A stretch of 63,031 nucleotides of DNA, counting the filler, from Stramenopiles sp. TOSAG23-6 (lineage: Eukaryota), in NCBI GenBank assembly GCA_900128565.1. It is 49 parts of 49 records of this genome, joined end to end, with 100 filler letters (N's around TTAATTAATTAA, not from the genome) between each part and the next. Parts side by side here need not be neighbours in the genome. Positions count along the whole stretch, not along the records: positions 49,094 to 50,272 come from LT639526.1; 48 more parts are not named here. One strand, written 5' to 3'. Below the pieces are notes generated by a model, which saw only the letters and a program-made list of their open reading frames with translations, was not told where the DNA came from and did not search any database. Each line of letters starts with the position of its first letter. The stretch's first letter is position 1. A program made the translations under genes and the position numbers. Shown one piece after another: positions 1,304 to 59,209 of the stretch.

Positions 1304-1356
1304 TTGTACCTAACAATTTTTTTAGATTTTTTTTGAAATATTTTTCCAAAATACAT

Positions 1357-2266
1357 GCCTGTTGTAGTACAATTACTGTTGCATCCTCATTCTTGGGTTC
1401 GTCTGGCATCTTCTCGGATAGTTGGTATGTTTGTATCAAGAACAAATCCTAAACAATTATCGGATAATTCAAATAATTGTATAACAGAAAAAAGTTTTTT
1501 GTGCAATCCAGGAATTCTCTTTGATCTAGCTAAATTTTCTTGCATGCAATTACAAAGTACAATATTGACTGAAAATCAAGCCCGACAAACAATTAAAAAT
1601 TTAGTGTACTGTGGTATTGCTATGTCATTTAATCCAACACTTTGTTTTACTGAAGAAATCAAAAAAGAGATATTTGAAAATGAATCTGATGAAATGTCAA
1701 AAACAATTCAAGTATCAGAAAGACCATTAAATTGGTTGTTTCATCGTATGGCAGGTTTGTGTCGCGAACAAAGAAGAATAAAACGTGACAAAAATGGTAA
1801 AGTAGCTCGTGATGCTGCAGAGCATGCTCTTCGAGTAGGTGATATTACAGGTATCAGACGTCGTGCAGTATTCAGATGGTTTGGTGCAATTACAGTGTCT
1901 TTGAATGTGAACAAAACTGCTTCTTATTTATCTGTTGTTTTACCCGTTTTATTACAAGCTCAAGCTAAAATTGAAGGAAGAGAAGCAAAACATGCCAAAC
2001 GATCTGAGCAAAGCACAGCAACATTAGCACAAGAAGTTCTTGCTTTATTATCAAAAACTCATGATTCAAAAGTTTATTTAGATGAGCATCATAAGTCTGT
2101 GTTGAAATATAAAGAAACGAAACGTGAACGAAAGAAAAAAAGAGCAATTGAAAAAATTGTGAATCCTATGGCACATACTCAAAGAAAACGTGCTAGACAT
2201 TTACATGCTAGAGCACAAAGAAAACTTAAACTCCAACAGCATAAAATGAAGGAAGGAAGAAGATAG
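1357..2266 (+). CDS. UTP20: UTP20-like (U3 snoRNP) C-terminal exon
   Basis: LLLHPHSWVRLASSRIVG, ARQTIKNLVY, RRRAVFRWFGA, basic tail; preceded by element 3' end CCAAAATACAT|. Confidence 0.8.
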
Positions 2267-2658
2267 AGATTGTAGAGATTATATATTGAATTTTCAACCG
2301 CATAAAATGAAGGAAGGAAGAAGATAGAGATTTTAGAGATTATATATTGAATTTTGTATGTAAAAGATATCGCCATATATATGAAAAGTGAAAAAGACAA
2401 AAGCAAAATATTAATAGAATTTTATTGTAAAAAGAGTAATAAAGATTATATACTCTATTGGTAAAATACTTTCAATTCTTCGTTTTCCTACTCGTTTCTT
2501 CATCTNNNNNNNNNNNNNNNNNNNNNNNNNNNNNNNNNNNNNNNNNNNNTTAATTAATTAANNNNNNNNNNNNNNNNNNNNNNNNNNNNNNNNNNNNNNN
2601 NNNNNTTGTACCTAACAATTTTTTTAGATTTTTTTTGAAATATTTTTCCAAAATACAT

Positions 2659-3568
2659 GCCTGTTGTAGTACAATTACTGTTGCATCCTCATTCTTGGGT
2701 TCGTCTGGCATCTTCTCGGATAGTTGGTATGTTTGTATCAAGAACAAATCCTAAACAATTATCGGATAATTCAAATAATTGTATAACAGAAAAAAGTTTT
2801 TTGTGCAATCCAGGAATTCTCTTTGATCTAGCTAAATTTTCTTGCATGCAATTACAAAGTACAATATTGACTGAAAATCAAGCCCGACAAACAATTAAAA
2901 ATTTAGTGTACTGTGGTATTGCTATGTCATTTAATCCAACACTTTGTTTTACTGAAGAAATCAAAAAAGAGATATTTGAAAATGAATCTGATGAAATGTC
3001 AAAAACAATTCAAGTATCAGAAAGACCATTAAATTGGTTGTTTCATCGTATGGCAGGTTTGTGTCGCGAACAAAGAAGAATAAAACGTGACAAAAATGGT
3101 AAAGTAGCTCGTGATGCTGCAGAGCATGCTCTTCGAGTAGGTGATATTACAGGTATCAGACGTCGTGCAGTATTCAGATGGTTTGGTGCAATTACAGTGT
3201 CTTTGAATGTGAACAAAACTGCTTCTTATTTATCTGTTGTTTTACCCGTTTTATTACAAGCTCAAGCTAAAATTGAAGGAAGAGAAGCAAAACATGCCAA
3301 ACGATCTGAGCAAAGCACAGCAACATTAGCACAAGAAGTTCTTGCTTTATTATCAAAAACTCATGATTCAAAAGTTTATTTAGATGAGCATCATAAGTCT
3401 GTGTTGAAATATAAAGAAACGAAACGTGAACGAAAGAAAAAAAGAGCAATTGAAAAAATTGTGAATCCTATGGCACATACTCAAAGAAAACGTGCTAGAC
3501 ATTTACATGCTAGAGCACAAAGAAAACTTAAACTCCAACAGCATAAAATGAAGGAAGGAAGAAGATAG
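2659..3568 (+). CDS. UTP20: Exact duplicate contig of the UTP20 fragment
   Basis: 2606-3807 is identical to 1304-2505. Confidence 0.8.
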
Positions 3569-3972
3569 AGATTGTAGAGATTATATATTGAATTTTCAAC
3601 CGCATAAAATGAAGGAAGGAAGAAGATAGAGATTTTAGAGATTATATATTGAATTTTGTATGTAAAAGATATCGCCATATATATGAAAAGTGAAAAAGAC
3701 AAAAGCAAAATATTAATAGAATTTTATTGTAAAAAGAGTAATAAAGATTATATACTCTATTGGTAAAATACTTTCAATTCTTCGTTTTCCTACTCGTTTC
3801 TTCATCTNNNNNNNNNNNNNNNNNNNNNNNNNNNNNNNNNNNNNNNNNNNNTTAATTAATTAANNNNNNNNNNNNNNNNNNNNNNNNNNNNNNNNNNNNN
3901 NNNNNNNTAGGTACAAAATTTCGTACGAAAAAAAAATTCGATTTTTTTGTTAAAAAAAAAAATGAAACATAC

Positions 3973-8342: not shown

Positions 8343-9010
8343 ATGTCTTGCTCGAGTACTAAACGAACATGTAAGCGCAGAGACACAGATTTAATGAAAT
8401 TGATGATGTCTGACTACGAAGTTCATCTAACTGATCATGACAGCTCTGCTGATTTTTTCGTCAAACTTTCCGGACCTAATGAAACAGCGTACGAAGGTGG
8501 AACTTGGAAGGTTCACGTCCAACTTCCAATTGATTATCCGTATAAATCACCATCTATTGCCTTTGATAACAAACTGTACCATCCAAATGTTGATGAAATC
8601 ACAGGTTCAGTTTGCCTTGACGTCATCAACCAAACATGGTCGCCCATGTATGTTGTTGTATTTTGAGTTTTTTTTGAGTTTTTTTTGAGTTTTTTTTTTC
8701 GTAGGTAATTTTGTACCTAAGAACTTTTTTTTTTTTTTAAATTTTTTTACGAAAAAAAAAAAATGAAATTTTTTTTTACAAAACTGTTTTTTTCATACAA
8801 TTTTCTATATCTAACAAAAAAATGTTTGAATGTTTTGATATTTTTTTTTCTACAGGTTTGATTTAATTAATGTGTTTAATGTGTTTTTACCACAATTATT
8901 AAGATATCCAAACCCTACAGATCCTCTTAATGGTGAAGCAGCTGCATTATTATTAAAAAATCCAAAATTATATAATGAAAAAGTAAAGGATTACGTGTAC
9001 GTCTCTCAAA
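8343..9010 (+). CDS. UBE2H: Ubiquitin-conjugating enzyme E2 (UBE2H/UBC8), intron 8648-8855
   Basis: [71 protein letters not shown]. Confidence 0.95.
8648..8855 (+). mobile_element. Introner-related intron with canonical GT-AG ends
   Basis: ccc at|GTATGT..TTTGTACCTAAG..TTCTACAG|g ttt gat gives conserved SPMFDL. Confidence 0.85.
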
Positions 9011-16891: not shown

Positions 16892-17135
16892 CACATGGCT
16901 ACATCTGAAGGACTTGTCCAAAGAGATGCATCACAAAATTACAGATCATTTGTTCTTTCAAGATCATTTTTTGCAGGATCTCAGAGATTTGGTGCCATTT
17001 GGACAGGTGATAATAAATCTGATTGGGGGCATTTGAAAATGTCATCTAAAATGATTCTCACCATGGGTATTTCTGGTTATCCGTTTGCTGGTGCTGATAT
17101 TGGAGGTTTTTTTGGGAATCCTGACAAAGAATTAT
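16892..17135 (+). CDS. GANAB: Glycoside hydrolase family 31 (glucosidase II alpha-like) exon
   Basis: RSFVLSRSFFAGSQRFGAIWTGDN..W.HL..GADIGGFFGNPD.EL. Confidence 0.93.
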
Positions 17136-17242
17136 GTATGTTTTATTTTTTTTAATTTCGAATTTATTTTTTTTTCGTACGAAATTTTGTACCTAACAAT
17201 TTTTTTATAATTTTTTTTTTGAAATATTTTTCCAGAATACAT

Positions 17243-18085
17243 GCATCATGTGCATTCAGAACTTCGCCGAGCTACTTCAATTATTGGTACTTTATTAAGA
17301 AAATCGTCAGTAAAACTTTATACTAGTCATTTTAAGATTATGGTAAATGCACTCTCTTGTCCTATTTCATGGATGTCAGATAATATTGATAAAGATGATT
17401 CTCAAGAACGTACTAAAGGGACGTTTTGTTTCGTATGTGAAACTCCGTATCATATGGTACGTGATTGTCCTCAACGTGTACGAGAGAGGAAAGAAAGACG
17501 TTCGGAAATTTGTTATAAATGTGGTGAGTCTGGTCATAATATGCAAAAATGTAAAAATACAAAAGCAAAACGACGTGCAAAGGCTAGAAAAATGCAAAAA
17601 GAAGAACAAAAACGACAACGACAACAGGAATTTGAAAGAGTTAAACAAATGCGAAAGCAAAGAAGACAACAGCAACTAGAACAACAGCAACACATGCAAC
17701 GAAAACAAGAACAAAAAAAGCATTCCAAGTTAAATATTTCCGATTTGTCTTTTGATCGTAAAGCTAGGACAAAGTTTGACAGACTGGACGAAGATGAAAA
17801 ACAAAATGTATGTAATTTAATAAATCAAACACTTAAGAGAGATGGGCGTATGAGTAATCCTAGTGCATTTCTTATCAGTTGTATACGTAAAATACAAAAA
17901 CAACAACAAAAAGAACAACAGAAACAAAACCAACAGCAGAAACAAAGCCAACAGAAGCAACAAAACCAACAACAGAAACAACAGCGACATAATCAAAGTA
18001 AAAAAAAGAATCAAAATAGGAAAAGTCAAGAAAAAAAACAACATCAGCAGCAGCAGCAAGTACAACAAAAACAACAAAAAAAACA
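17243..18085 (+). CDS. CCHC zinc-knuckle, Gln-rich protein fragment (unrelated to upstream GH31)
   Basis: CFVCETPYHMVRDC and CYKCGESGHNMQKC; NPSAFLIS motif; poly-Q tail. Confidence 0.7.
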
Positions 18086-21000
18086 NNNNNNNNNNNNNNN
18101 NNNNNNNNNNNNNNNNNNNNNNNNNNNNNTTAATTAATTAANNNNNNNNNNNNNNNNNNNNNNNNNNNNNNNNNNNNNNNNNNNNCACATGGCTACATCT
18201 GAAGGACTTGTCCAAAGAGATGCATCACAAAATTACAGATCATTTGTTCTTTCAAGATCATTTTTTGCAGGATCTCAGAGATTTGGTGCCATTTGGACAG
18301 GTGATAATAAATCTGATTGGGGGCATTTGAAAATGTCATCTAAAATGATTCTCACCATGGGTATTTCTGGTTATCCGTTTGCTGGTGCTGATATTGGAGG
18401 TTTTTTTGGGAATCCTGACAAAGAATTATGTATGTTTTATTTTTTTTAATTTCGAATTTATTTTTTTTTCGTACGAAATTTTGTACCTAACAATTTTTTT
18501 ATAATTTTTTTTTTGAAATATTTTTCCAGAATACATGCATCATGTGCATTCAGAACTTCGCCGAGCTACTTCAATTATTGGTACTTTATTAAGAAAATCG
18601 TCAGTAAAACTTTATACTAGTCATTTTAAGATTATGGTAAATGCACTCTCTTGTCCTATTTCATGGATGTCAGATAATATTGATAAAGATGATTCTCAAG
18701 AACGTACTAAAGGGACGTTTTGTTTCGTATGTGAAACTCCGTATCATATGGTACGTGATTGTCCTCAACGTGTACGAGAGAGGAAAGAAAGACGTTCGGA
18801 AATTTGTTATAAATGTGGTGAGTCTGGTCATAATATGCAAAAATGTAAAAATACAAAAGCAAAACGACGTGCAAAGGCTAGAAAAATGCAAAAAGAAGAA
18901 CAAAAACGACAACGACAACAGGAATTTGAAAGAGTTAAACAAATGCGAAAGCAAAGAAGACAACAGCAACTAGAACAACAGCAACACATGCAACGAAAAC
19001 AAGAACAAAAAAAGCATTCCAAGTTAAATATTTCCGATTTGTCTTTTGATCGTAAAGCTAGGACAAAGTTTGACAGACTGGACGAAGATGAAAAACAAAA
19101 TGTATGTAATTTAATAAATCAAACACTTAAGAGAGATGGGCGTATGAGTAATCCTAGTGCATTTCTTATCAGTTGTATACGTAAAATACAAAAACAACAA
19201 CAAAAAGAACAACAGAAACAAAACCAACAGCAGAAACAAAGCCAACAGAAGCAACAAAACCAACAACAGAAACAACAGCGACATAATCAAAGTAAAAAAA
19301 AGAATCAAAATAGGAAAAGTCAAGAAAAAAAACAACATCAGCAGCAGCAGCAAGTACAACAAAAACAACAAAAAAAACANNNNNNNNNNNNNNNNNNNNN
19401 NNNNNNNNNNNNNNNNNNNNNNNTTAATTAATTAANNNNNNNNNNNNNNNNNNNNNNNNNNNNNNNNNNNNNNNNNNNNCACATGGCTACATCTGAAGGA
19501 CTTGTCCAAAGAGATGCATCACAAAATTACAGATCATTTGTTCTTTCAAGATCATTTTTTGCAGGATCTCAGAGATTTGGTGCCATTTGGACAGGTGATA
19601 ATAAATCTGATTGGGGGCATTTGAAAATGTCATCTAAAATGATTCTCACCATGGGTATTTCTGGTTATCCGTTTGCTGGTGCTGATATTGGAGGTTTTTT
19701 TGGGAATCCTGACAAAGAATTATGTATGTTTTATTTTTTTTAATTTCGAATTTATTTTTTTTTCGTACGAAATTTTGTACCTAACAATTTTTTTATAATT
19801 TTTTTTTTGAAATATTTTTCCAGAATACATGCATCATGTGCATTCAGAACTTCGCCGAGCTACTTCAATTATTGGTACTTTATTAAGAAAATCGTCAGTA
19901 AAACTTTATACTAGTCATTTTAAGATTATGGTAAATGCACTCTCTTGTCCTATTTCATGGATGTCAGATAATATTGATAAAGATGATTCTCAAGAACGTA
20001 CTAAAGGGACGTTTTGTTTCGTATGTGAAACTCCGTATCATATGGTACGTGATTGTCCTCAACGTGTACGAGAGAGGAAAGAAAGACGTTCGGAAATTTG
20101 TTATAAATGTGGTGAGTCTGGTCATAATATGCAAAAATGTAAAAATACAAAAGCAAAACGACGTGCAAAGGCTAGAAAAATGCAAAAAGAAGAACAAAAA
20201 CGACAACGACAACAGGAATTTGAAAGAGTTAAACAAATGCGAAAGCAAAGAAGACAACAGCAACTAGAACAACAGCAACACATGCAACGAAAACAAGAAC
20301 AAAAAAAGCATTCCAAGTTAAATATTTCCGATTTGTCTTTTGATCGTAAAGCTAGGACAAAGTTTGACAGACTGGACGAAGATGAAAAACAAAATGTATG
20401 TAATTTAATAAATCAAACACTTAAGAGAGATGGGCGTATGAGTAATCCTAGTGCATTTCTTATCAGTTGTATACGTAAAATACAAAAACAACAACAAAAA
20501 GAACAACAGAAACAAAACCAACAGCAGAAACAAAGCCAACAGAAGCAACAAAACCAACAACAGAAACAACAGCGACATAATCAAAGTAAAAAAAAGAATC
20601 AAAATAGGAAAAGTCAAGAAAAAAAACAACATCAGCAGCAGCAGCAAGTACAACAAAAACAACAAAAAAAACANNNNNNNNNNNNNNNNNNNNNNNNNNN
20701 NNNNNNNNNNNNNNNNNTTAATTAATTAANNNNNNNNNNNNNNNNNNNNNNNNNNNNNNNNNNNNNNNNNNNNCACATGGCTACATCTGAAGGACTTGTC
20801 CAAAGAGATGCATCACAAAATTACAGATCATTTGTTCTTTCAAGATCATTTTTTGCAGGATCTCAGAGATTTGGTGCCATTTGGACAGGTGATAATAAAT
20901 CTGATTGGGGGCATTTGAAAATGTCATCTAAAATGATTCTCACCATGGGTATTTCTGGTTATCCGTTTGCTGGTGCTGATATTGGAGGTTTTTTTGGGAA

Positions 21001-22067
21001 TCCTGACAAAGAATTATGTATGTTTTATTTTTTTTAATTTCGAATTTATTTTTTTTTCGTACGAAATTTTGTACCTAACAATTTTTTTATAATTTTTTTT
21101 TTGAAATATTTTTCCAGAATACATGCATCATGTGCATTCAGAACTTCGCCGAGCTACTTCAATTATTGGTACTTTATTAAGAAAATCGTCAGTAAAACTT
21201 TATACTAGTCATTTTAAGATTATGGTAAATGCACTCTCTTGTCCTATTTCATGGATGTCAGATAATATTGATAAAGATGATTCTCAAGAACGTACTAAAG
21301 GGACGTTTTGTTTCGTATGTGAAACTCCGTATCATATGGTACGTGATTGTCCTCAACGTGTACGAGAGAGGAAAGAAAGACGTTCGGAAATTTGTTATAA
21401 ATGTGGTGAGTCTGGTCATAATATGCAAAAATGTAAAAATACAAAAGCAAAACGACGTGCAAAGGCTAGAAAAATGCAAAAAGAAGAACAAAAACGACAA
21501 CGACAACAGGAATTTGAAAGAGTTAAACAAATGCGAAAGCAAAGAAGACAACAGCAACTAGAACAACAGCAACACATGCAACGAAAACAAGAACAAAAAA
21601 AGCATTCCAAGTTAAATATTTCCGATTTGTCTTTTGATCGTAAAGCTAGGACAAAGTTTGACAGACTGGACGAAGATGAAAAACAAAATGTATGTAATTT
21701 AATAAATCAAACACTTAAGAGAGATGGGCGTATGAGTAATCCTAGTGCATTTCTTATCAGTTGTATACGTAAAATACAAAAACAACAACAAAAAGAACAA
21801 CAGAAACAAAACCAACAGCAGAAACAAAGCCAACAGAAGCAACAAAACCAACAACAGAAACAACAGCGACATAATCAAAGTAAAAAAAAGAATCAAAATA
21901 GGAAAAGTCAAGAAAAAAAACAACATCAGCAGCAGCAGCAAGTACAACAAAAACAACAAAAAAAACANNNNNNNNNNNNNNNNNNNNNNNNNNNNNNNNN
22001 NNNNNNNNNNNTTAATTAATTAANNNNNNNNNNNNNNNNNNNNNNNNNNNNNNNNNNNNNNNNNNNN

Positions 22068-26057: not shown

Positions 26058-27141
26058 ATGAGGATTGTCAAACTATTTATTTGCCAAAGTCTTTTTCTTC
26101 TTTTTGTTCCATGCACTTCTCAGTTAAGTGGTTTCTTGGGAACATGGAGAGAGACTGACCCGAGTATGTGGGGATCTTGGTTTCGGAATAATGATCCCGA
26201 TGGAAAATCGGAAAAAACTTGGAGAATGGCATACAGGATCCAAAGAGATTCCCTATTTGTGGCTTTAAAGATCCAGTAATGCCTGGACAACGTGGAAAAG
26301 ATAAAGATGGAATATCACAGCATCATTGCACATATTGGGCCGAGAAGAAGTGTAATTTCAAAATGGGGGGTAGAAATGTATGTAGAGAAATGGAACGTCA
26401 GTGTAAAAAGTCCTACTGTAATCCACTTTGTTTACTTGCAACGTGGGGTGTCGAATCTATTCTAAAGCCTGGTGCAAAATGTGAAAAGTGGGATCGCTGT
26501 AATGCATTTAAGAAGGAAATTCAATCCCCTCGTGTTCATCACGCTTTTAACGCAGTCGTCACTGCCTGGGGTTGGGATCGCGCAGATTGGGTCTATAAAT
26601 TTGTAGAACAACGCATTTATGGAGATATGTTTCCATCTGCTGCAATACCAATGCGTTCGTGTCTACATGACCCTGAATTAGAGGATAAGTTTTTAAAAAA
26701 TAATCGAAATAAAAGAGAATGGAATGGTTGTGAAGAATGCAAAAAATTAGTTAAACTGAAATTATTCTCAAATGGGCCAGAATCAACAAAAAGGCCAGGC
26801 ACAAGAGAAAAATATGGTTGTGTTTATAGTAACGCTCCAAGTGAATATCCACATGGTCGAATCCAGCCTAAACCTAAACCAAAAAAGGCTTCAGCAATAT
26901 CAAGAATGTTCGAAGCAAATCTACTTAAAGGAAATATGTTTGTTTTCATCATGAATTTCGAATTTATTATTTTTTCAAAGAAATTTTGTACCTGACAAAA
27001 AATAATTGTGACATATTTTTTCATAATGCATCAAATCGGATTTCCCAGACCACCCCTCAATGCAGGATAGGTGCGAACAGGTTCGTAATTTATTTGAAAA
27101 ATCGAGAAGAGGAAGATCAGGTATTGAATCAAAATTTGAAC
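26058..27141 (+). CDS. Secreted Cys/Trp-rich protein (frameshift near 26215; GT-AT intron 26938-27031)
   Basis: Signal peptide; aat at|GTTTGT..CCTGAC..AATGCAT|c aaa tcg keeps the frame open. Confidence 0.5.
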
Positions 27142-32691: not shown

Positions 32692-33079
32692 ACTTTTGTT
32701 TCTCTCGAGCCTGACGCGTATTATCCTAATAATTTCAATGATTTTGCTTCTGGTTTAGTCACTCTTTTTGAATTATTAGTTGTCAATAATTGGTTCATCA
32801 TTATGGATGGTTTTGCTGCTGCTACTGGTTCTGATTGGAGTAGGTGGTTTTTCATTTCGTGTACGTTTTCATCTTGAATGTATGAATTTTTTTTTGAGTT
32901 CAATTTTTTTTTTCGTAGTGAATTTTGTACCTAACAATTTTTTGTAAAAATAAACTTTTGTTCACTATACATGGTGGCTATTCGCTGTAGTAATGGTTCT
33001 TAACTTAGTTGTAGCATTTGTTTTAGAAGCATTTGAAGAAAATCATTTGAAGAAAAACACCGAAATCGATACAATATAA
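32692..33079 (+). CDS. TPC: Two-pore calcium channel (TPC) second pore and S6; GT-AT intron 32861-32972
   Basis: YYPNNFNDFASGLVTLFELLVVNNWFIIMDG..WSRWFFIS|WWLFAVVMVLNLVVAFVLEAF. Confidence 0.9.
32861..32972 (+). mobile_element. Introner-family intron, GT-AT
   Basis: tcg t|GTACGT..TTGTACCTAAC..CTATACAT|gg tgg cta. Confidence 0.88.
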
Positions 33080-41526: not shown

Positions 41527-42591
41527 ATTTTTATAACATTGACAATTGCATCTAGAACTTCATTGGCTGCCCAAGGATTGACATTTACAGCACCATTGAG
41601 AACTCGGCTACATATCTTTTGAAATAATATTTTTTTTTTTCATACAACTTTTGTTAGGTCGATATTAAAAAAAAGTTTAAAATTTTTTTTTTTTTTAAAT
41701 TAGGGTTAGGGGTAAAAAATTCAATTTTGAAAACGTACATCCAGAGAATTGACTTACAATGACTACTCCATTAGTATTAGTATGCACATATTCTAATGGT
41801 AATAAATTAAAAGATTCACGCACAGATGTTGTGATAAGCGCATCAGCTGCTAAATAATAAGAAATTCTTTCTTCCATCTCGAGAGAATTCACTTCAATAA
41901 ATTCAATTGTACATAAAGTATGAAAAAATATTTCAAAAAAAATCTAAAAAATTCTGTTAGGTACAAAATTTCGTATGAAAATTAAAAAAAAAATTCAATA
42001 CATTTAATTGTACCTGGGCAAATATCATTTGTTTCCTTTTGTAATTTGAGTATTTCAGTTCTTGTTTCACCAATACGTTTTTTATTTGCATCAATTCCAG
42101 ACCTAGTTGTTAGACCAATTTGTACCAAAGCTACTTTTTCATGTAACTGAGGGTATGTATTGTGAATTTTTTTTTTTTTTTTTTTTTTAAAAAAAAATCG
42201 TTAGGTACAAAATTTCGTATGAAAAAAAATTTTTTTTTTTTAAAATAATAATAATTGTACAAACATACATTGTTCTAACATTGATTTGAATGCTAATAAT
42301 TTAAATGGAATTCCTCTAATTCTTGTTAATTCATCAATGCCTAAAAATAAAAACTTTTTCTTATGTCTTTGTAAAACTTCCTCAACATTATCCTGTGGTT
42401 TTGAATGTATGTATTTATTCAATATGGAAGGTTCAATTCCTGGATGGGATATGAATTGTGAAAAAAAAAATGTCAAAATTTTTTCAAAAAATTTGTTAGG
42501 TACAAAATTTACTACAAAAAAAAAAAAATTTGAAATTCATGATGAAAATCTACACCGTAATTGTGACGTCACGACCTTGCATGTGAACCTT
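41527..42591 (-). CDS. TPS: Trehalose-6-phosphate synthase (GT20), 5 exons; four GT-AT introns
   Basis: V|SHPGI, LGIDEL..RGIPFKLLAF..LEQ|YPQLHEKVALVQI, AADALITTSVRESFNLLPLEY, VSQFSG|CSRVLNGAVNVNPW; introns 42451-42553, 42155-42268, 41913-42001(or 42013), 41612-41738. Confidence 0.92.
41612..41738 (-). mobile_element. Introner-family intron, GT-AT; neighbouring AGs are out of frame
   Basis: gga t|GTACGT..CCTAAC..AAAAGATAT|gt agc cga; AG 4 nt upstream or 4 nt downstream breaks the frame. Confidence 0.88.
42155..42268 (-). mobile_element. Introner-family intron, GT-AT
   Basis: caa t|GTATGT..CATACGAAATTTTGTACCTAAC..CACAATACAT|ac cct cag. Confidence 0.9.
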
Positions 42592-48803: not shown

Positions 48804-48899
48804 AGTCCTGCCTGGGAGTCGAACCCAGAATCTCTTGCTCACTTCTAAAGTACTTCCTTAAACCGAAGGCAAGCGCCTTATCCATTGGGCCAACAGGAC
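48804..48899 (-). tRNA. tRNA-Arg(TCG) with 23-nt intron (48840-48862)
   Basis: GTCCTGT/GCAGGAC acceptor, TGGCCCAATGGATAAGGC D-arm, CTTGC-CT-TCG-G^A-GCAAG, CTGGG-TTCGACT-CCCAG. Confidence 0.95.
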
Positions 48900-48993: not shown

Positions 48994-49135
48994 NNNNNNN
49001 NNNNNNNNNNNNNNNNNNNNNNNNNNNNNNNNNNNNNTTAATTAATTAANNNNNNNNNNNNNNNNNNNNNNNNNNNNNNNNNNNNNNNNNNNNTAACAAA
49101 AATATTACAAAAAAAAAATATTTTTCAAAATACAT

Positions 49136-50187
49136 TGAGATATTTTCTACTGATGATTCTGCGAAATATTTAGGAGATACTTTTCAAATTGTATCAGAAA
49201 ATAAAGTACATGAAAATAACAAAAGTGATGAAAATAACAAAAGTGATAAAAATAACAAAAGTGATAAAAAAAGTAAAAGTGATGAAAATAACAAAAGTGA
49301 TAAAAATAAAAAAAGTGATAAAAATAACAAAAGTGATGAAAATAACAAAAGTGATAACCCTAACCCTAATACACAAACTTCAGATATTGAAAAAGGATTT
49401 GTTGTTCAACGTTATATACAAAATCCTTACTTAATTAATGGAAAAAAATTTGATATGCGCATTTATGTTTTGGTGACTTCTATTAATCCGTTGACTGTTT
49501 ATCGATTTAACAATGTATGTTTTATTATTTTGAATTTTGAATTTTTTTTTCATACGAAATTTTGTACCTAACGATTTTTTTTTATTTTCGGTAAAAAAAA
49601 AAATATTTTTTCACAATATTTTTNNNNNNNNNNNNNNNNNNNNNNNNNNNNNNNNNNNNNNNNNNNNNNNNNNNNNNNNNNNNNNNNNNNNNNNNNNNNN
49701 NNNNNNNNNNNNNNNNNNNNNNNNNNNNNNNNNNNNNNNNNNNNNNNNNNNNNNNNNNNNNNNNNNNNNNAATTTCCTATAAAAAAATAAATTTGAAATT
49801 GAATAAAAAAAATGAAAAATATGAAAATGATAATAATGAACAAAAGGGAAGTAGATGGTCAATTCGAGTCAGTTTTCATCACATGAATTTCGAATTTATT
49901 TTTTTTTATTTCTTTTTTTTTTTTGGTAAAAAAATTTCGTACCTAACAATTATTTTTTTTTTTTTTAATATATTTTCATTGATACATGGTTTATTCAAAT
50001 ACCTAAGTAATGTCGAAAATATTGGATCTGAAAAAGTAAAAAAATTAAAAAACGATATTGATGACGTCATAGCTGCATTGATGATTGGTACTGAAAATTT
50101 TATGTATGATGAAATTTTGAAATCTGAAGCAACGCGAAAAAATTATTTTGAAATTTTTGGGCTTGATATTGAAATTAATACTGATTT
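49136..50187 (+). CDS. TTLL: Tubulin-tyrosine-ligase-like (polyglutamylase family) fragment
   Basis: [51 protein letters not shown]. Confidence 0.92.
49868..49987 (+). mobile_element. Introner-family intron, GT-AT, upstream exon does not end in AT
   Basis: att cga|GTCAGT..CGTACCTAAC..GATACAT|ggt tta. Confidence 0.8.
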
Positions 50188-50372
50188 GTACGTTGTACAT
50201 AAAATTTTTGAATGTTTTTTTTTCATACGAAAATTTGTACCTAATACATTTTTAAACGTTTTTTATAAAAATNNNNNNNNNNNNNNNNNNNNNNNNNNNN
50301 NNNNNNNNNNNNNNNNTTAATTAATTAANNNNNNNNNNNNNNNNNNNNNNNNNNNNNNNNNNNNNNNNNNNN

Positions 50373-51522
50373 GTATCCCGAACTTTATATAGCGCTGATA
50401 TATCCCAAGATGAGTTTACTATGCAAATTCCAGTCGTAGTGTATGATAAATTGCCTGGACGTTGTCCAGCTGGGCCACGAACACTTGAGGATGTAAGTGT
50501 GGAACATAACGAAGCTGCCAAAGAATTTGATACAACGCTAGCTGCTTTTGAAAAGTCTTCTCAGTTTCTTCCTTCTTCAGATGCGTGTAATGCCGATATT
50601 CTCGGAAAGCCCACGCTGATATTCAACTTTGCGATTGGTTCTCTTTTAAACGCTGCCTCTCAGCGACTTACAAAACTCAAGGAGCAGCTTTGCGATCAAG
50701 GAATCCCCCGAAATAATATTAGTAGTATAAGAGATATCATAAAATCGACGCACGTGGATTGCTATAAATTTGCAAGTATAAGCGAAGGATTCTCTCGAAA
50801 ATGGTCATATGAGAGTCACGGACCTTGGTATATCAAAGCAGTCAATTTGCACGAGGACTCCTCCAACACAACACCAGTGCTAGGTACGTTTTTCAAAATT
50901 GAATTTTTGTTTTTTTTCATACGAAATTTTGTACCTAACATTTTTTTTACGAAAAAAAAGTTCGCAATGCATGTGCTTTAGTTCATTCCAATAAGGAAAA
51001 ATTTGTTTCAATGAGATCAAGAGAAAAAGGGTACGATATTTTGACTATTCCAGCAAAAAAGTTGCTCATTGATGATTATTCATTAGGTACGAAATTTGGT
51101 ACAAAAAAACATGAGATAACGCTCCAGGATTTATTCCCATGTCGAAAGATTTTTGTATATGCATACGGTCAAAAAGCGAATCATATAAACCCTAACCTTA
51201 CTAACCCCACAGTAGTACTACCACCAAAATTATTAAATATTCAAAATAATAATACAATACAGAAAATTTCTGAGAAAAAAAAAAGAAAGTCTGTACTGGC
51301 TCAATCGTATATCGATGTATCTTATCAAGCTTAAAAAAATTGTCAATTTTTTTAAAATTTTTACTATAAACATTTCGTACCTAACAAAAAAATAAAAGTT
51401 TTGAAATATTTTTTCATAGTATATGTAATAATTAGTGGACTACTTCAACATGATGCTTTACTATCCAACGATAATGACATTCATGTATATGGAGGGCGAT
51501 CAATAGAATCAAACCCTACCAT
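50373..51522 (+). CDS. Hypothetical protein, 3 exons (introns 50884-~50972, 51317-51424)
   Basis: Frames chain across element copies; atc gat|GTATCT..AGTATAT|gta ata. Confidence 0.6.
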
Positions 51523-51650
51523 GTATGTTTTATTTTTTTTCAAATTCGATNNNNNNNNNNNNNNNNNNNNNNNNNNNNNNNNNNNNNNNNNNNNTTAATT
51601 AATTAANNNNNNNNNNNNNNNNNNNNNNNNNNNNNNNNNNNNNNNNNNNN

Positions 51651-51681
<31 letters not shown>

Positions 51682-51737
51682 GTATGAAATTTTGTACCTA
51701 ACAAATTTTTTTTGTATGAATTTTTTTTACAATATAT

Positions 51738-52789
51738 GAACGTCAATTGCAGATTATTAATTCTAAATTAATGAAGCAATTATCTCAAGCGGAACTAGAT
51801 GCGTCATCACAAAGACAAAGTCGTGAACGTTTCAATAGGGTATCAAATATATCAATGATGAATCATAGAACGAATAGCAGAGAGCATGATGACCAATATA
51901 CACGAAATATCAATGATAGATTTAATGAGTTTGACACTGCGTCAATACACCCTAACCCTAATATGGACAATGCAACAAGTAATAGAAGTCAAATGAGTAG
52001 TAGTACGTATGATAGTATAATAGACACAAATGATAAGAAACACATTCAATCTGAAACGAAAACAGAACAAAATTCAAAACATTCAAAAAATGTAAAAAAT
52101 GTAAAACATTCAAAACATTCTGAAACATTTTCGAAACCAATCACAGAAACAAATTCTCAAGTAGCAGCACTAAAATCACAATTTAAAGCACAAATTGATC
52201 GATGGAATGGTATGTATGTTTTATTTTTTTGAAAATTTGAATTTTTTTTTTTTTGAAAATTATGTACCTAACAAATTTTTTTAGATTTTTTTTGAAATAT
52301 TTTTCCAAAATACATTCTTGAATCTGACGAAGATGACAATGAGACTTTTGAAGCAAGTAACCCTAACCCTAATAACAATGAGAACTTTGAAGCAAGTAAC
52401 CCTAACCCTAATGACAATGAGACATTTGAAGCATTTACTACATCAAAAACATATGACACGTGGCACCAGGACCATGACGATCATAGCACAGACAGACCTG
52501 TTTCATCTGATACACAACAATCTACATCGGTATCGTTATCAAGACCAACAACTCAACAGGAAAAAAACAAAATAAAAACAAAAAATAGTAAAAAAAATAA
52601 TAAAAAAAATATAAACCCTAACCCTAGCTATACAAACAAAAGTAAAAAAAAAGAAAGTCTTGATGATATGATGAAAACAGGACAAAATGATGCTGCAGAA
52701 GCAAGTATTGATAGAATAAATCAATTTTTACAAAGAAAAAAACGTGATGCAATAGAAAAAAAATTAGAACGGGACAAAAACTTACGAAT
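51738..52789 (+). CDS. Hypothetical coiled-coil/low-complexity protein (GT-AT intron 52214-52315)
   Basis: ggt at|GTATGT..TACAT|t ctt gaa; NPNP inserts. Confidence 0.55.
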
Positions 52790-52928
52790 GTTTGTTTTCA
52801 TTTTACCTTTTTTTTTTCAATTTTTTTTNNNNNNNNNNNNNNNNNNNNNNNNNNNNNNNNNNNNNNNNNNNNTTAATTAATTAANNNNNNNNNNNNNNNN
52901 NNNNNNNNNNNNNNNNNNNNNNNNNNNN

Positions 52929-53294
52929 AATTGGAAAACAAATAATCTAGAAAATCGACTAAAACACACAAAGCGATGTACTCGATGGTTGTCCGTTTTC
53001 TTTTCTTTACTTTTTTGTTTTATTTCATTTTTTAAGATTTTTTTATTTTTTTTTTTTTTGGTTTCGTACGAAATTTTGTACCTAACATAAAAAAAATTAA
53101 ATTTCAAAAAAAAATATTATTCACAATATTTGTATGAAGCTGCTCAATGTATGGAAAAACGAGTTATTCATTTAGAAAAAGATATCAAATCATATATCGA
53201 TGTCGCTGATATCGAATTAAATCAACTCTTACACGATGATGACGTCATCGAGGCAAATAAACTTCAATTTGAGTTGAAAAAAAAAATGAAGTAA
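52929..53294 (+). CDS. Hypothetical C-terminus; probable GT-TT intron 52991-53131
   Basis: tgg tt|GTCCGT..CGTACGAAATTTTGTACCTAAC..CACAATATTT|g tat gaa gives the longest frame. Confidence 0.5.
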
Positions 53295-53403
53295 ACGCTG
53301 AGAAATGGAGAAAAGAATCAGAGTTTTTACACCAGTCATGTAAAACATATGATATATGTATAATGATAAAGTATATAAAAAACAAATTTTATTTTCTTAC
53401 AAT

Positions 53404-54008
53404 TCAACAATTTGTTCTTTTTTGTCTTTTTCTCTGTCTATTATCATCATCATCACTTTCATCATCACTTTCATCTTCTTCTTCATCATCATCACTTTCA
53501 TCTTCTTCTTCATCATCATCACTTTCATCTTCATCATCTTCAAAATCTGATTCTGAAGATTCATTCTCTGATTCATTGTCTAATTCATTCTCTGATTGTT
53601 CATCACCATCAATATTGACTATAGGTAATAATTTAGCAAGATCGTCTACATTACAAACTAAATTCCAAATTCGTTCGGCATTGGCAGCATTAGAACCATT
53701 TAGTTGAGCTAAACCGGTGTGAATATCTAAACTACCTTCAAGTCTACTTAAAACAGTTGTACGTCCATCTCTCATCCCTACAGTAGTCAATGATAATTTT
53801 GTATTTTCCATTACATGTTTTGATTTTTTTGAATTTTTAAAATTTTTAAAATTTTTAAAATGTTTTGAATTTTTATCTAGACCACAGTTTCCTTTTATCA
53901 TACACTGCGTGTACCAAGAACCATCCTTTTTTTGTACAATATAATTTCCAGTGACTTTACCACTATGATGAATATCCAAAACACCTTTTGCAATTGTCGC
54001 ACAGAGCA
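53404..54008 (-). CDS. Hypothetical protein last exon with acidic tail
   Basis: Open frame after ACAATACAT|; (ESDDDEEED)n. Confidence 0.55.
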
Positions 54009-54308
54009 ATGTATTGTCAAAAAATATTTTTTTTTTTTTTTGGTTAAAAAAAAAAGAGTTGGGTAAAAAATTTCCTTAAAAAAAAAAAATTCGTTTTTTT
54101 TTAAAANNNNNNNNNNNNNNNNNNNNNNNNNNNNNNNNNNNNNNNNNNNNTTAATTAATTAANNNNNNNNNNNNNNNNNNNNNNNNNNNNNNNNNNNNNN
54201 NNNNNNTTTTATTTTTTTTTTTACAAAAAAATCGAATTTTTTTTTTATAGTAAATTTTGTACCTAAGGATTTTTAGTTTTTTTTTTTGAAATATTTTCCA
54301 AAATACAG

Positions 54309-55383
54309 TCTTTAGCAGATTGTGGCAATCAATATCTTCTCGCCCTAGGTATTAAAAAATCAGAAAAATTACCCACTGGTGTTCACGTTTGTTTATAGTA
54401 TTCATTTTTTGTATTTTTTGTATTTTTTTTATTTTTTCTATTTTTTCTATTTTTTGTATTTTTTTTAATTAGGGTTAGGGTTTAATATCAAATACGAAAA
54501 TTCCATTCCTACTGAAACAANACCTAATGTTTTTTTTTNTAACTANAAAATATTGTTACACAATATATCCATATGGTTATGCTAATGAAAGATACATTTT
54601 TGGTCTTATGTCAGGAGTTGGAATGTACGTTTTCATCATTTTTTTTTTTTTTTTTTAAATATTTTTTTTCGTACGAAATTTTNTACCNAANAANTTTTTT
54701 TAGATTTTTTTAGAATTTTTCAAACTACATCTTCTTCTTAGGTTGCGGGGTCACTTGTTACCATGGACTCCATTTATTATTCAATCCACAACCTCTGGAC
54801 AACCTTCCATTAGGAATAGGTATCATGGCAACTGCAGGAGCCATTGAAGGATACACTTTACACGTATGTTGAATTTGTATTATTATTTTGAAAAAAAAAT
54901 TGAAATTTTTTTTGAAATTTTTTTTTGAAATTTTTTTTTAGACGTCATTTAAAATAGCAAAAAAAAAAAAAAAACTANTTTTTTTTTTTTTTTGAAATAC
55001 GTTTTCACAATATTTGTCGCCATTCAAGCCGTTCGTAATGCTGCAAGAGAAACAAGAATGACATTTGGAGATTATATTCGAAAAGGCCCAGATCCTGTAC
55101 GTTTTTTTTTTTTTTTTTTACTTTTTTTTCAAATTCGAATTTTTTTTTTTCGTACGAAATTTTGTACCTAACAATTTTTNTTTTTTTTTTNCGGNAAAAA
55201 AAAATTTTGAAATATTTTTCTACAATACATGTATCNACGGCTGTATTATTAGAGGATGGAGCTGCTGTAACTGGCGTGTTTATTGCTGGATCTTGTATGG
55301 CAATGACCCACATAACTGGTAACTTACTATGGGATGCTGTAGGAACACTATTTGTTGGTGGTTTGCTAGGTGGTGTTGGTATA
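54309..55383 (+). CDS. SLC30A9: Cation diffusion facilitator ZnT9/SLC30A9-like, 5 exons; no internal intron ends in AG
   Basis: SLADCGNQ.LLALG..H|PYGY.NERY..L.SGVG|IFFLG.G..YHG..EG.TLH|VA..DP|VSTAVLLED.AAV.G; introns 54387-54568 GT-AT, 54625-54730 GT-AT, 54864-55015 GT-TT, 55097-55230 GT-AT. Confidence 0.93.
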
Positions 55384-55664
55384 NNNNNNNNNNNNNNNNN
55401 NNNNNNNNNNNNNNNNNNNNNNNNNNNTTAATTAATTAANNNNNNNNNNNNNNNNNNNNNNNNNNNNNNNNNNNNNNNNNNNNTTTTTTTTTTTTTTTTT
55501 TTTTTTTAATTTTTTTTTTTTTTTTTTTTTTGAATATTTCATAACAAAACTTCGTTTTAATTTATACAAATCAAAATATTAGTCTATTCATTTATTATAC
55601 ATATCTAAGAAGTATTACAATAAGCAGCACTGGAGGAAAGAGATCTACAACACTATCAATAAAT

Positions 55665-56576
55665 TTAAAATTGTTGTTCTGGAAGACCACTGTGAAAATT
55701 AAACATAATTACTTTCCCATTATCAACAACTGCCCAAAGCAAAGAAACAGAATCAACAGTTTCTGATGCTGCTAGTGCTGCATTTATACAATCAGGTGTT
55801 GGTGGTGAGGAGGTAAAATCACAGATAAATACACGAAAATTCGGAGGGTAATTCTTATCAATAATGACAGACTCATTAGCATTAGAGTTAGGAACAGACT
55901 CATGGCTTACACTTTCTTTTACTTTTGTTTCCATGACGTCATTGTTTATTAAATTTTGAGTTTCTCCAGCCATAGGTTTTGACACAATATTTTTCTTCGT
56001 ACACAAATATTCAGAATTACCATCAACTTCAGTTTGTGAATTCGTACAATGTTGTTGTCTTACTTCGAGACCATACCGTTTATTAAATCTAGTATTAGGC
56101 ATCCACACATCAAATGCACACCACTTTTCTAACCATGAAACCGGTGAATTAGCCTTGATAGATACAATTCTAGGCGAAGTTGAGGTTAACTCAAATGCTT
56201 TCTTACACTGTAACACAACGGGAGGACTATTTCGATACCGCCTAACCGTGTATCCAGCATTACGTAGATGAGAGTAGACTAATTGACACTGCATAGACAC
56301 TGCATATGGAGTCAAAAGGGGACCATATATAAAATGTTCGTATCCCCAACGAACGTCTAACTCTTCTCTTTCTTCATCCATGTTTCCTTCCGCTATGTTA
56401 GGTTTAATATATAGTCGGAGTTTTCCAAGATTCATCAGAAAAAGGGCTTCCTCTGGGTATAGGAAATGCAAAGCACTATGATGGAATCCAAGAGACCGAA
56501 GATATCGACCGCGTTGAGTCGTGACCTGTATGGTGTTATTGATTGTATCCCAAGAAGCTTCACATACTTTTACCAT
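55665..56576 (-). CDS. TSEN54: tRNA-splicing endonuclease subunit Sen54
   Basis: RGRYLRSLG..LYPEEALFL..G.L, VYSHLRNAGYTVRR, FDVWMP..F.K, AVVDNG. Confidence 0.85.
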   Translation of the reverse strand: MVKVCEASWDTINNTIQVTTQRGRYLRSLGFHHSALHFLYPEEALFLMNLGKLRLYIKPNIAEGNMDEEREELDVRWGYEHFIYGPLLTPYAVSMQCQLVYSHLRNAGYTVRRYRNSPPVVLQCKKAFELTSTSPRIVSIKANSPVSWLEKWCAFDVWMPNTRFNKRYGLEVRQQHCTNSQTEVDGNSEYLCTKKNIVSKPMAGETQNLINNDVMETKVKESVSHESVPNSNANESVIIDKNYPPNFRVFICDFTSSPPTPDCINAALAASETVDSVSLLWAVVDNGKVIMFNFHSGLPEQQF

Positions 56577-56580
56577 ATTG

Positions 56581-56659
56581 ATATAAAGCAGTGAAACTAA
56601 AACTATATAAAGCAGTGAAACTAAAACTATATAAAGCAGTGAAACTAAAACTATATAAA
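56581..56659. repeat. 24-nt tandem repeat (~3.3 copies)
   Basis: TATAAAGCAGTGAAACTAAAACTA units. Confidence 0.9.
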
Positions 56660-56759
56660 NNNNNNNNNNNNNNNNNNNNNNNNNNNNNNNNNNNNNNNNN
56701 NNNTTAATTAATTAANNNNNNNNNNNNNNNNNNNNNNNNNNNNNNNNNNNNNNNNNNNN

Positions 56760-57032
56760 TATCAGAATCCGCTTGTAGAAGACGGGAACTCATTATGAGA
56801 GTCAAAGATAAATTTAAATTGTTTGGTAGACAAATTGTTTTACATAATGCACAAGTCAGAGCGTTGAATGATGGTGAAGCATCGCTACAACATTTAAAAT
56901 TTCAACTGTACTTGAAATTCATTGAATGTGTCACAATTCCATCTGAAGCTGCAAGTAGAATTATTGAAACTCTGGAATATCCACCATGTAGTTCATCTGG
57001 AGGTTTTTTAGGTATTGTACTGCAAGTATGTT

Positions 57033-57063
<31 letters not shown>

Positions 57064-57880
57064 TTTTTTTAAATATTTTTTCATAGTGCAAGGTGGCTGG
57101 TTTCGTTCGGACGAATGCACAGCGCCTGCATATCTAAATAATCTAAATAATGAAAGTAAAACAAGTCCTACTCAAATAGATTGTTATTGTTTTAAATACG
57201 AAGCTTCTGAATATTCGAAAAAAAAATTTTGGTCAAAAAAAAAAAAAAAGGCAAAATATCTACAGCATTAGTTCCTAAATCTCTCGCTCTCAAAGGCATA
57301 CATGATTTATGTACATGTGATGACAATTATATAGTCGATGATATTACTGGAAATTGTGTACTTCCTCACCTTTTTTGTGAAAAAAAATGTAAAAAAACAG
57401 GCTATATAAGTACAAAACTCGTATGTGAATGTCTTCGTCCTCCCGAGATTGAGCAAAACATTAGATGTAAACCACCAGCTACTTATAATGTATGTTTTTT
57501 TTTTCAAACTTTTTTGAAATATTTTTTCAAACTTTTTCTTATAGTAAATTTTGTACCTAAGAAAAAAAAATTTTTACGGAAAAAAAAAATTTTGAAATAT
57601 TTTTCCAAAATACATAAAGAAATGGGTCATTGTCTATGTGAAATGATAAACAATACAGAGTTATCTTACCAATATGATGTAGATGGAAATAGAGAATTAC
57701 AATGCATATGTAATCATCCATATGAATTAGATATAAGCAGTGGTAAATGCATATGTAAGCCAGAATATGAAGGAAGATGTAACCCAAAGCCAAAGCCAAA
57801 CGGAACATGTGAATTTCCAAGTATATTAAGTACGGATATATTTGGTAATACAACAAATTATTGTGTTTGTTCTTATCCAT
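56760..57880 (+). CDS. EGF-like Cys-rich protein; introns 57026-57091 (GT-AA) and 57490-57615 (GT-AT)
   Basis: CxC..Y..D..G.C repeats; tat aat|GTATGT..TACAT|aaa gaa. Confidence 0.6.
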
Positions 57881-58046
57881 GTACGTTTTCACAAGTTTAA
57901 ATTTAACTTTTTTTTTTTTTTTTTTTTTTTTTTTNNNNNNNNNNNNNNNNNNNNNNNNNNNNNNNNNNNNNNNNNNNNTTAATTAATTAANNNNNNNNNN
58001 NNNNNNNNNNNNNNNNNNNNNNNNNNNNNNNNNNTACAGTTGAACA

Positions 58047-59209
58047 ATGCCAAAACGAAATGCAAATTCACCTTTTGAAACTATTCTGGAGGAAGTAGGT
58101 GTCGATTTGACACACTCAGAAGACAAGGAGAACAATAATGATGAAAATGATACCGAAATTATCGTCCCTAAAGGTGTACAATGTCGCGATCCTTTAAAGA
58201 TGAGTGGTGAATTGGAGACGTTATTTTCGAGTGGACGATATCGTGCTAGTGATTTCATGCAAGGTCTTGAAAGTTTTTTGAGCGATGAAACGAACCTTCG
58301 TAAATGTTTAATGCCAATGATTCTGTCTCAACACAAAAGACAACGGTTCAATACAACCTGACTTGATACAACATATTCTTATTAGCTTAGTTCCAGAATA
58401 TATGGACAATAATAATGATTGTAGTCGTTTGGTAGATAACATGACTAAATTATTACTTTCACAACTCAAATGGCTCGAGTTCATTAGTGATAGTTCGGCT
58501 CTGACGGATACTTTACTTGAATGTTTACAAGTTTGTCCATCAAAGGTACAAATTGAAATTGTTGGGTTTCTTCCTGAAATCCTCGATGATAGTCACCAAG
58601 AGAGAATCGTGATGGGTCTTCAGGAACTCATGGAAAATGATATTTCTATATACGTTTTCAAAATTGAATGTAATTTTTTTTTTCATACGAAATTTTGTAC
58701 CTAACAAAACATTTTTACTAAAAAAAAATATTTCTTTACAAAACATGGTCGTTCATGTGTTAGAATGTTTTAGCAACCTTCAACTCACACCAAAACTCCT
58801 AGAATCAGTCATGAAGTGGGTATTAGAAACATTAGCTTCAACAAGAATGGAAGACTTACCTGTCATTTTACGATTTTTAATGCAAAGTGTCCCTCCTGAT
58901 GTGTCCGTTGCAAAGCAAGTCGTACTACAACTTCGTACACAACTTCGCCTGTCGAATAAACCAGATATAAATGAAGCAGCTCAAGAAGTCCTGTTAATGG
59001 AAGCATTATCTAATGGACTTCATTTTAGAAGTGATATTGCTGAAATATTTTTGGAGGTCATTTCAGACGCAAAACAAGCAATTGTCTTTGATTTATGGAT
59101 TCTTTTATTACTATCTGAAATCGAACTTTGGCGTAAAAATGCAATTATTCTTTTTCGAAAAAAAATTTCATCTGGGCAATTTACACATCTGCTGTTAAGG
59201 GATTGTTTT
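58047..59209 (+). CDS. FANCD2: Fanconi anemia D2 N-terminal region (frame break ~58340; intron 58650-58746)
   Basis: LLSQLKWLE, VQIEIVGFLPEILDDSHQ, VLECFSNLQL, EDLPVILRFLMQS, LRTQL. Confidence 0.9.
58650..58746 (+). mobile_element. Introner-family intron with AT-AT ends; no AG inside
   Basis: tct at|ATACGTTTTC..CATACGAAATTTTGTACCTAAC..CAAAACAT|g gtc gtt. Confidence 0.82.

Follow-up and report, generated by a model that had tools for sequence, protein, structure and literature searches.

The window is a stretch of 63,031 nucleotides of Stramenopiles sp. TOSAG23-6 DNA; it consists of 49 contigs of approximately 1.2 kb each with N linkers between them, and is not a single locus. The source is the assembly of an AT-rich eukaryote, an uncultured marine protist (21.1 Mb, 6236 contigs), in which 18S is present. 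A TTLL gene, a ZnT9 gene, an ion-channel gene (TPC) and a gene labelled TPS carry introns of one repeated family (Table 1). The labels TPC and TPS come from a sequence-only reading of the window, and a Pfam search with the TPC gene gave no match. The exon before the TTLL intron at 49515 matches TTLL proteins. Used alone, the exon downstream of the 49868 intron found no homologue, whereas the upstream exon was matched, and TTLL homologues have no insertion at the site of this intron. Elsewhere in the window there is a tRNA gene (48804-48899, minus strand) with an over-long anticodon loop and an uncalled anticodon, which is probably intron-bearing, and at about 57000-57100 a short T-rich intron-like stretch ends in CAG, apparently without a branch box. 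AACCCT telomere-like repeats lie within exons and some family introns (window 49357-49370, 51189-51207 and 54470-54483, and locus L008).

Table 1. Introns, exons and branch-point-like box in the window. Coordinates are window positions and a slash marks an exon-intron boundary.
Feature	Position	Strand	Description
TPC intron	32861-32972	+	tcgt/GTACGT..CAT/gg; upstream GT
TPS, second intron	41913..42013	-	upstream AG, downstream AT; absent from the sequence-only reading
TPS intron	42553-42451	-	acggt/GTAGAT..CAT/at; upstream GT
TTLL, upstream family intron	49515..49623	+	AT/GTATG; 3' end lost in N gap
TTLL exon	49771..49867	+	ends ...W-S-I-R (CGA); N gap before
TTLL intron	49868-49987	+	120 nt; cga/GTCAGT..CAT/ggt
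TTLL branch-point-like box GTACCTAAC	49939..49947	+	putative branch A 49946, 41 nt before 3' end
TTLL exon	49988..50187	+	begins G-L-F-K-Y-L
TTLL, next family intron	50188..50272	+	TT/GTACG; cut by contig end
Diverged family copy	50884..50972	+	upstream AG, downstream AT; absent from the sequence-only reading
ZnT9 intron	54387-54568	+	cac/GTTTGT..TAT/cca; upstream AC
ZnT9 intron	54625..54730	+	GT...AT, AT repeat intact; G-I-F-F continuous with homologues
ZnT9 intron	54864..55015	+	GT...TT, upstream AC; mild counter-example
ZnT9 intron	55097-55230	+	cct/GTACGT..CAT/gta; upstream CT

The sequence-only reading had singled out five junctions (TTLL 49868, ZnT9 54387, ZnT9 55097, TPC and TPS 42553) at which the direct repeat flanking the intron is broken and the intron still ends in YAT. 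All five were recovered in place and as written. The TTLL copy is free of stop codons, as had been stated, and its retention would add 40 residues; the exon-side differences are also as described, being synonymous in TPC (Ser) and at ZnT9 54387 (His) and conservative in TPS (Val/Ile). The expectation that these junctions would be unambiguous in cDNA does not hold. If GT...AT is called register 0, the register is unique at one junction of the five, ZnT9 54387. The same mRNA would arise from registers 0 and +1 in TTLL, -1 to +3 at ZnT9 55097, -1 to +1 in TPC, and -1 and 0 in TPS. Register -2 can be told from register 0 at all five, and register -1 at two.

An exact search with a 17-nt core of the family gave 4487 matches in the assembly (control, 0), a figure that does not equal the copy number because the assembly is redundant. 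Near-identical contigs stand in rows in the window, four at 16892-21967 and two at 1304-3807. Similar introns are spread over unrelated genes of varied Pfam families, as is the case for introners. We called copies in a wider sample of 81 sequences (851,115 bases, the window among them) with a scorer that is blind to the four boundary bases. This gave 490 de-duplicated calls, of which 186 passed the filters and 180 were kept, six with odd starts being dropped as likely miscalls. Because donor positions +3 to +7 and acceptor positions -3 and -4 are set by the filters, counts in these columns are circular. From the five named junctions the set contains only TPC and ZnT9 55097. Chimeric joins at or near family introns were seen in L093, L094, L080, L143 and L146, where one upstream exon leads to different downstream exons. 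Those at family repeats include the gamma-tubulin and CCT6 loci and are able to fake single diverged copies. Open frames of at least 30 codons flank 43 of 48 diverged copies on both sides, and similarly 117 of 132 concordant copies.

The donors of the 180 copies are GT (161), AT (13) or GC (6), and the 3' ends are AT (146), AG (10), GT (10), TT (5), AC (5) or other (4). The YAG acceptor of U2-type introns is thus the exception, and sliding the boundaries brings no further copy to AG. The 10 copies that do end in AG are in the same register, with a median branch distance of 36 nt compared with 38 nt. One such canonical copy, with an upstream AT, lies at window 8600-8860, in a gene that we take to be ubiquitin-conjugating-enzyme-like. 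Canonical introns also persist beside the family, since CCT6 (L146:1001-1152, minus strand) has an ordinary GTAAGT...TAG intron without the family branch box. Copies that start with AT (ATATG, ATACG) are found in the window at 26934 and in the 58630 region.

A 2-nt direct repeat flanks 132 of the 180 copies. Where the intron ends in something other than AT, the end is identical to the upstream dinucleotide in 21/34 copies (1.8 expected), which shows a real 2-base duplication. The two sides of the repeat are not equivalent: the upstream dinucleotide differs from AT while the end is AT in 35 copies, and the reverse is seen in 8 (n=180, binomial p 4e-5). At position -2, 32 copies have lost the A upstream while keeping it downstream, and one shows the reverse; position -1 alone (17 vs 9, p 0.17) shows no significant asymmetry. 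Concordant non-AT copies are as near to the family consensus as AT/AT copies (p 0.42), and the 35 diverged copies are further from it (p 0.0005). One reading of this is that young copies carry whatever was duplicated and that older copies hold or gain an acceptor AT.

These counts bear on three further claims of the sequence-only reading. The upstream dinucleotide, which had been taken to behave as coding sequence, is not free: it is AT in 119/180 copies against a background of 9.6%, and it pairs with U1 (below). The downstream AT had been called a constrained acceptor and it is indeed preferred, but it is not fixed, as 34/180 copies have another end and RNA shows the removal of a GT...TT copy. 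Finally, the proposed direction of change, in which the exon-side AT diverged, goes beyond the data. At ZnT9 55097 the Pro is kept in 108/114 homologues, so this site was probably never AT, and it is more likely, from the protein alignment, that the acceptor moved toward AT. TTLL homology is barely informative, the junction residue being R in 1/10 and H in 0/10 aligned homologues, so that Arg and His are barely separated.

The donor consensus is GTAYGTTT and the box-to-end distance has a median of 38 nt. In 163/177 copies there is an earlier YAT after the branch box, and therefore the 3' end is not chosen by scanning for the first AT. A conserved ...AATAC motif, 30-59 nt past the box, is the likely 3'-end cue. 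The terminal inverted ends amount to just GTAT/ATAC (about 4 nt); positions +4 and -6 do not covary and the +1/-3 association is weak (p 0.12). A(+1) co-occurs with C(-1) (3/13 compared with 3/167, p 0.005), giving three AT-AC copies among the 180, one of which is also explicable by duplication.

The sole U1 snRNA found begins AAACGUACAUG, where the Rfam consensus has AUACUUACCUG. This 5' word is perfectly complementary to CAT/GTACGTTT. Nucleotides 1-11 depart from the Rfam consensus three times, each time matching the donor consensus of the family, and the changed bases pair with T(+7), with Y(+4), where G can pair with C or U, and with the exon T(-1). Over the 180 copies, in which +3 to +7 are fixed by the filter, the mean pairing is 9.6/11 for this U1 and 7.2/11 for a canonical U1; the duplex energy is better with this U1 in 179/180. 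The TTLL donor makes 7.5/11 pairs with either. The gene scores 54 bits, below the Rfam cut-off of 69.5, and is present on two contigs at identical coordinates. Differences are also present in the loops of stem-loops 1 and 2. A canonical U1 12-mer is not enriched in the assembly (58, compared with 68 for the control), and of the 40 matches to the 5' word in a metagenome scan, none continues like the U1 of this protist. U5, U2, U1 and U4 lie head to tail within 640 bases (L069:9-645, G000:C1146) and U6 lies elsewhere. The pairing regions of U2, U4, U5 and U6 are standard, with an intact ACAGAGA box in U6. The family branch box TACCTAAC is complementary to the intact U2 GUAGUA with one extra C, which points to its use as branch point, as with the position predicted for the TTLL copy. 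Taken together, the data suggest that U1, known here from its gene, is co-adapted to the donors of the GT...AT family.

U1 pairing by itself is no proof of the cut site. In the usual U1 geometry C8 lies opposite G+1, and this, together with G(+5) against U6, places cleavage before GT. The principal alternative keeps the same U1-paired bases and cuts two bases further upstream, so that the intron would start at the upstream dinucleotide (AT, GT, TT and so on) and end TAC or TAT, in the manner of the AG-AC and AG-AT introns of Fritillaria or of AT-AC introns. Such a Y-A-C/T end is chemically plausible and is better conserved (A in 98%, in part forced by the filter), and A(+1)-C(-1) is a tolerated pair (bioRxiv 10.1101/212811). 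The mRNAs from registers -2 and 0 are identical in 132/180 copies. However, register -2 would create a junction stop in five of the 48 diverged copies and register 0 in none; the first base of the exon would be more conserved than the first base of the intron (32 vs 1), G(+5) would lose its place against standard U6, and 10 GT/GC-AG copies would become non-canonical.

The ZnT9 gene aligns gap-free with homologues across four junctions. At 55097, register 0 gives the conserved Asp-Pro and register -2 would give Asp-His, which excludes register -2 there. At 54387 the His-Pro pair (H 30/36, P 33/36 homologues) rules out registers -3 and +1 and leaves -2, -1 and 0. At 54864, register 0 gives His while register -2 would give Leu, the commonest homologue residue in a variable column (15/54). 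A gamma-tubulin TT/GT...GT copy leaves exactly one split codon. Its residue is presumably Phe, the product of register 0 or -1. Swapping the dinucleotides is silent in 12/44 diverged copies, a count with no null model that we have not used as evidence. All in all, a cut two bases upstream seems very unlikely to us.

Register -1 would make the introns TG...CA, removed by an unusual or non-spliceosomal route in which pairing between the terminal GTAT and ATAC might act as guide. Short inverted ends do exist, and the mRNA is the same as for register 0 in 154/180 copies and at three of the five named junctions. Against this, stops would arise in 2/48 diverged copies, TTLL would read AG..CA and ZnT9 54387 CG..TA, the ends lack covariation at +4/-6, and full U1, U2 and U6 signals fit register 0; we regard this route as extremely improbable. 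The five junctions had been said to argue against both AT-AC and TG-CA. For AT-AC this stands, and the support for GT...AT over AT...AC comes mostly from the U1 5' end, the register -2 stops and the ZnT9 homologues; TG-CA is broken by TTLL and ZnT9 54387 only (2/5). We conclude with considerable confidence that the register is GT...AT.

RNA from the organism is found in seawater metatranscriptomes, in which exon pieces match with 0-1 differences. Four such runs contain just 5-6% of the words of window 49094-59093. At locus L062, a 93-nt GT...TT copy is exactly removed in RNA contigs of X1 and of X4, both samples being from one study, and in one X4 contig the same is true of a 93-nt AT...AT copy (L062:3460-3552). 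No equivalent register of either copy is GT-AG, which shows that non-AG copies are removed exactly. Both copies keep their repeats, so the two joints leave the register unfixed and are also compatible with register -2. For the four diverged copies of L062 no joint is among those listed, which is evidence neither way. One contig stops 2 nt before a register-resolving boundary, with 15 letters undisplayed, and, when looked for, no highly expressed gene was found to carry a diverged copy. Very many RNA contigs from X1-X4 match the interiors of L062 introns, some of them into exon-like flanks. They combine signal from many loci and represent unspliced RNA, stable introns or carried-over DNA.

The abundance of such intron-containing contigs would suit retention of many copies, or their splicing at a canonical AG close by, with AT not being the working acceptor. 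An AG lies between the branch box and the end in 43/177 copies and an in-frame AG within 30 nt downstream in 62/170, and the TTLL copy stays open if retained. Yet ZnT9 is gap-free over its four junctions, the two copies removed exactly have no AG, and only 11/165 copies would be open if retained. Such use of AG or retention is accordingly a highly unlikely explanation for the family.

Among the spliceosomal proteins, the alpha-finger of Prp8 (L072) is identical to the human one except for K to R in the MKWKK stretch. Prp8 differs at 62/1334 conserved columns overall, so single changes are not diagnostic. Near human residues ~1250-1256, ASGSTTF is replaced by TAGQATF, with another residue in 116-120 of 120 homologues at three of the positions. 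One U2AF2 and Slu7 are present. U2AF1 was not found in this incomplete assembly, either with two back-translated patterns or in 16 CCCH-finger matches; a candidate at C1280 proved to be an unrelated RRM protein.

U12-type introns have the donor RTATCCTT and a branch box of their own that lies near the 3' end, and U11 has its own pairing pattern. A transformed minor system of this type, tolerant of many terminal pairs as in Physarum, might account for the 13 AT starts and the three AT-AC copies, and the family branch box loosely resembles that of U12-type introns. However, the family donor does not follow RTATCCTT and is complementary to U1 rather than to the U11 pattern, and the branch distance is about 38 nt. 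U12 and U6atac were not found in the incomplete assembly, a search that had no positive control and carries little weight. We consider a U12-type origin the least credible of the alternatives.

We therefore favour, with good confidence, a reading in which the family consists of U2-type, major-spliceosome, introner-like introns served by a co-adapted U1. The element would insert with a 2-base target duplication, mostly at AT; the duplication is shown statistically and the mode of insertion is proposed. Cleavage would fall just before GT at the 5' end and, at the 3' end, just after the two bases downstream of a conserved ATAC or ATAT. The changed U1 (5'-AAACGUACAUG) would pair with CAT/GTAYGTTT, to which it is complementary. 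Standard U6 would then take over +4 to +6 and set cleavage before the G, as established splicing biochemistry has it, and U2 would pair with TACCTAAC. The duplicated dinucleotide would serve as acceptor, with A(-2) favoured because it is expected to pair with the branch A, and with the last base relaxed from G to mostly T. Older copies would keep or gain the downstream AT while the exon side follows the needs of the protein. The net consensus would be AT/GT...AT/G, which differs from the usual AG/GT...AG/G in having T in place of G at each -1 position.

In yeast, the post-catalytic structure has G(-1) paired with G(+1), A(-2) paired with the branch A, and the pyrimidine at -3 read by Gln1594 (bioRxiv 10.1101/212811; PMC12262433). 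A YAT end keeps the A(-2) and -3 contacts and alters G(-1), which agrees with both the tighter constraint seen at -2 and the association of A(+1) with C(-1). The data may also point to something larger, namely that an introner takeover shifted the whole major-spliceosome code from AG/GT...AG/G to AT/GT...AT/G. This would mean jointly that U1 changed where it faces the exon (C9 to A), that the active site routinely docks G(+1)-U(-1) with an unchanged Prp8 alpha-finger, and that U2AF1 lost its AG reading or had it rewired, letting nearly any 2-base duplication act as acceptor. Taken as a whole this proposal is tentative, and we rate it slightly short of evenly balanced. If it is true, the element could land nearly anywhere harmlessly.

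What makes the family important is the matching U1 and the range of non-AG ends more than the five junctions. The terminal G of introns has been explained structurally by its pairing with the first G (bioRxiv 10.1101/212811). Most introns sampled here end in T, in a genome whose U6 is standard and whose Prp8 alpha-finger is unchanged, and so offer a natural test of the strictness of the G-G pair. The altered U1 suggests co-evolution of the spliceosome with a mobile intron family, on the exon side too, and the spread of introners without AG becomes testable. On a practical level, annotation of this organism will go wrong with gene finders that require AG. The combination is unreported in the literature searched; subscription papers and the supplements of introner surveys and preprints lie outside that literature and may list it. 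The same literature yielded no description of exon-side co-evolution of mobile introns and U1.

A 3' AT terminates 34% of the introns of Fritillaria borealis and 44% of those of F. pellucida (PMC13326754; PMC11282704). As here, the major spliceosome is used, the origin is MITE-like, and YAY stands at the intron end, often also just upstream of the donor (PMC13326754; PMC11282704). In contrast, the main classes in Fritillaria are AG-AC and AG-AT, two U1 versions share identical 5' ends and U2AF is duplicated (PMC13326754), whereas in this protist non-GT donors do not dominate (GT in 161/180), one family dominates the sample and the 5' end of U1 is changed. Co-evolved U1 ends have been described in Entamoeba (AACAAAC) and Mastigamoeba (ACGUAC) (bioRxiv 10.1101/2022.06.08.495308). 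The U1 of this protist shares the ACGUAC change at +4 with Mastigamoeba and the A opposite +7 with Entamoeba; the changes described for those two genera are on the intron side (bioRxiv 10.1101/2022.06.08.495308), while here C9 to A pairs with the exon T(-1) and is accompanied by a non-AG acceptor. The introners of Micromonas, Aureococcus and others are alike in that thousands of similar introns occur, the element giving the donor and the duplication giving the acceptor (PMC11282704; PMC12130899). Elsewhere, however, introners have AG acceptors, with AG and AC as the 3' sites in the survey (PMC11282704; PMC12130899), in comparison with AT, GT and TT ends, a 2-nt duplication and ~4-nt inverted ends here. 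Finally, the introner elements of Amoebophrya likewise form repeated introns whose ends are not GT-AG and which are bordered by direct repeats, but they have no clear terminal consensus, their inverted repeats are 8-20 nt long and U1 is apparently missing (PMC7789003), whereas the family described here has a sharp donor, a branch box and a matching U1.
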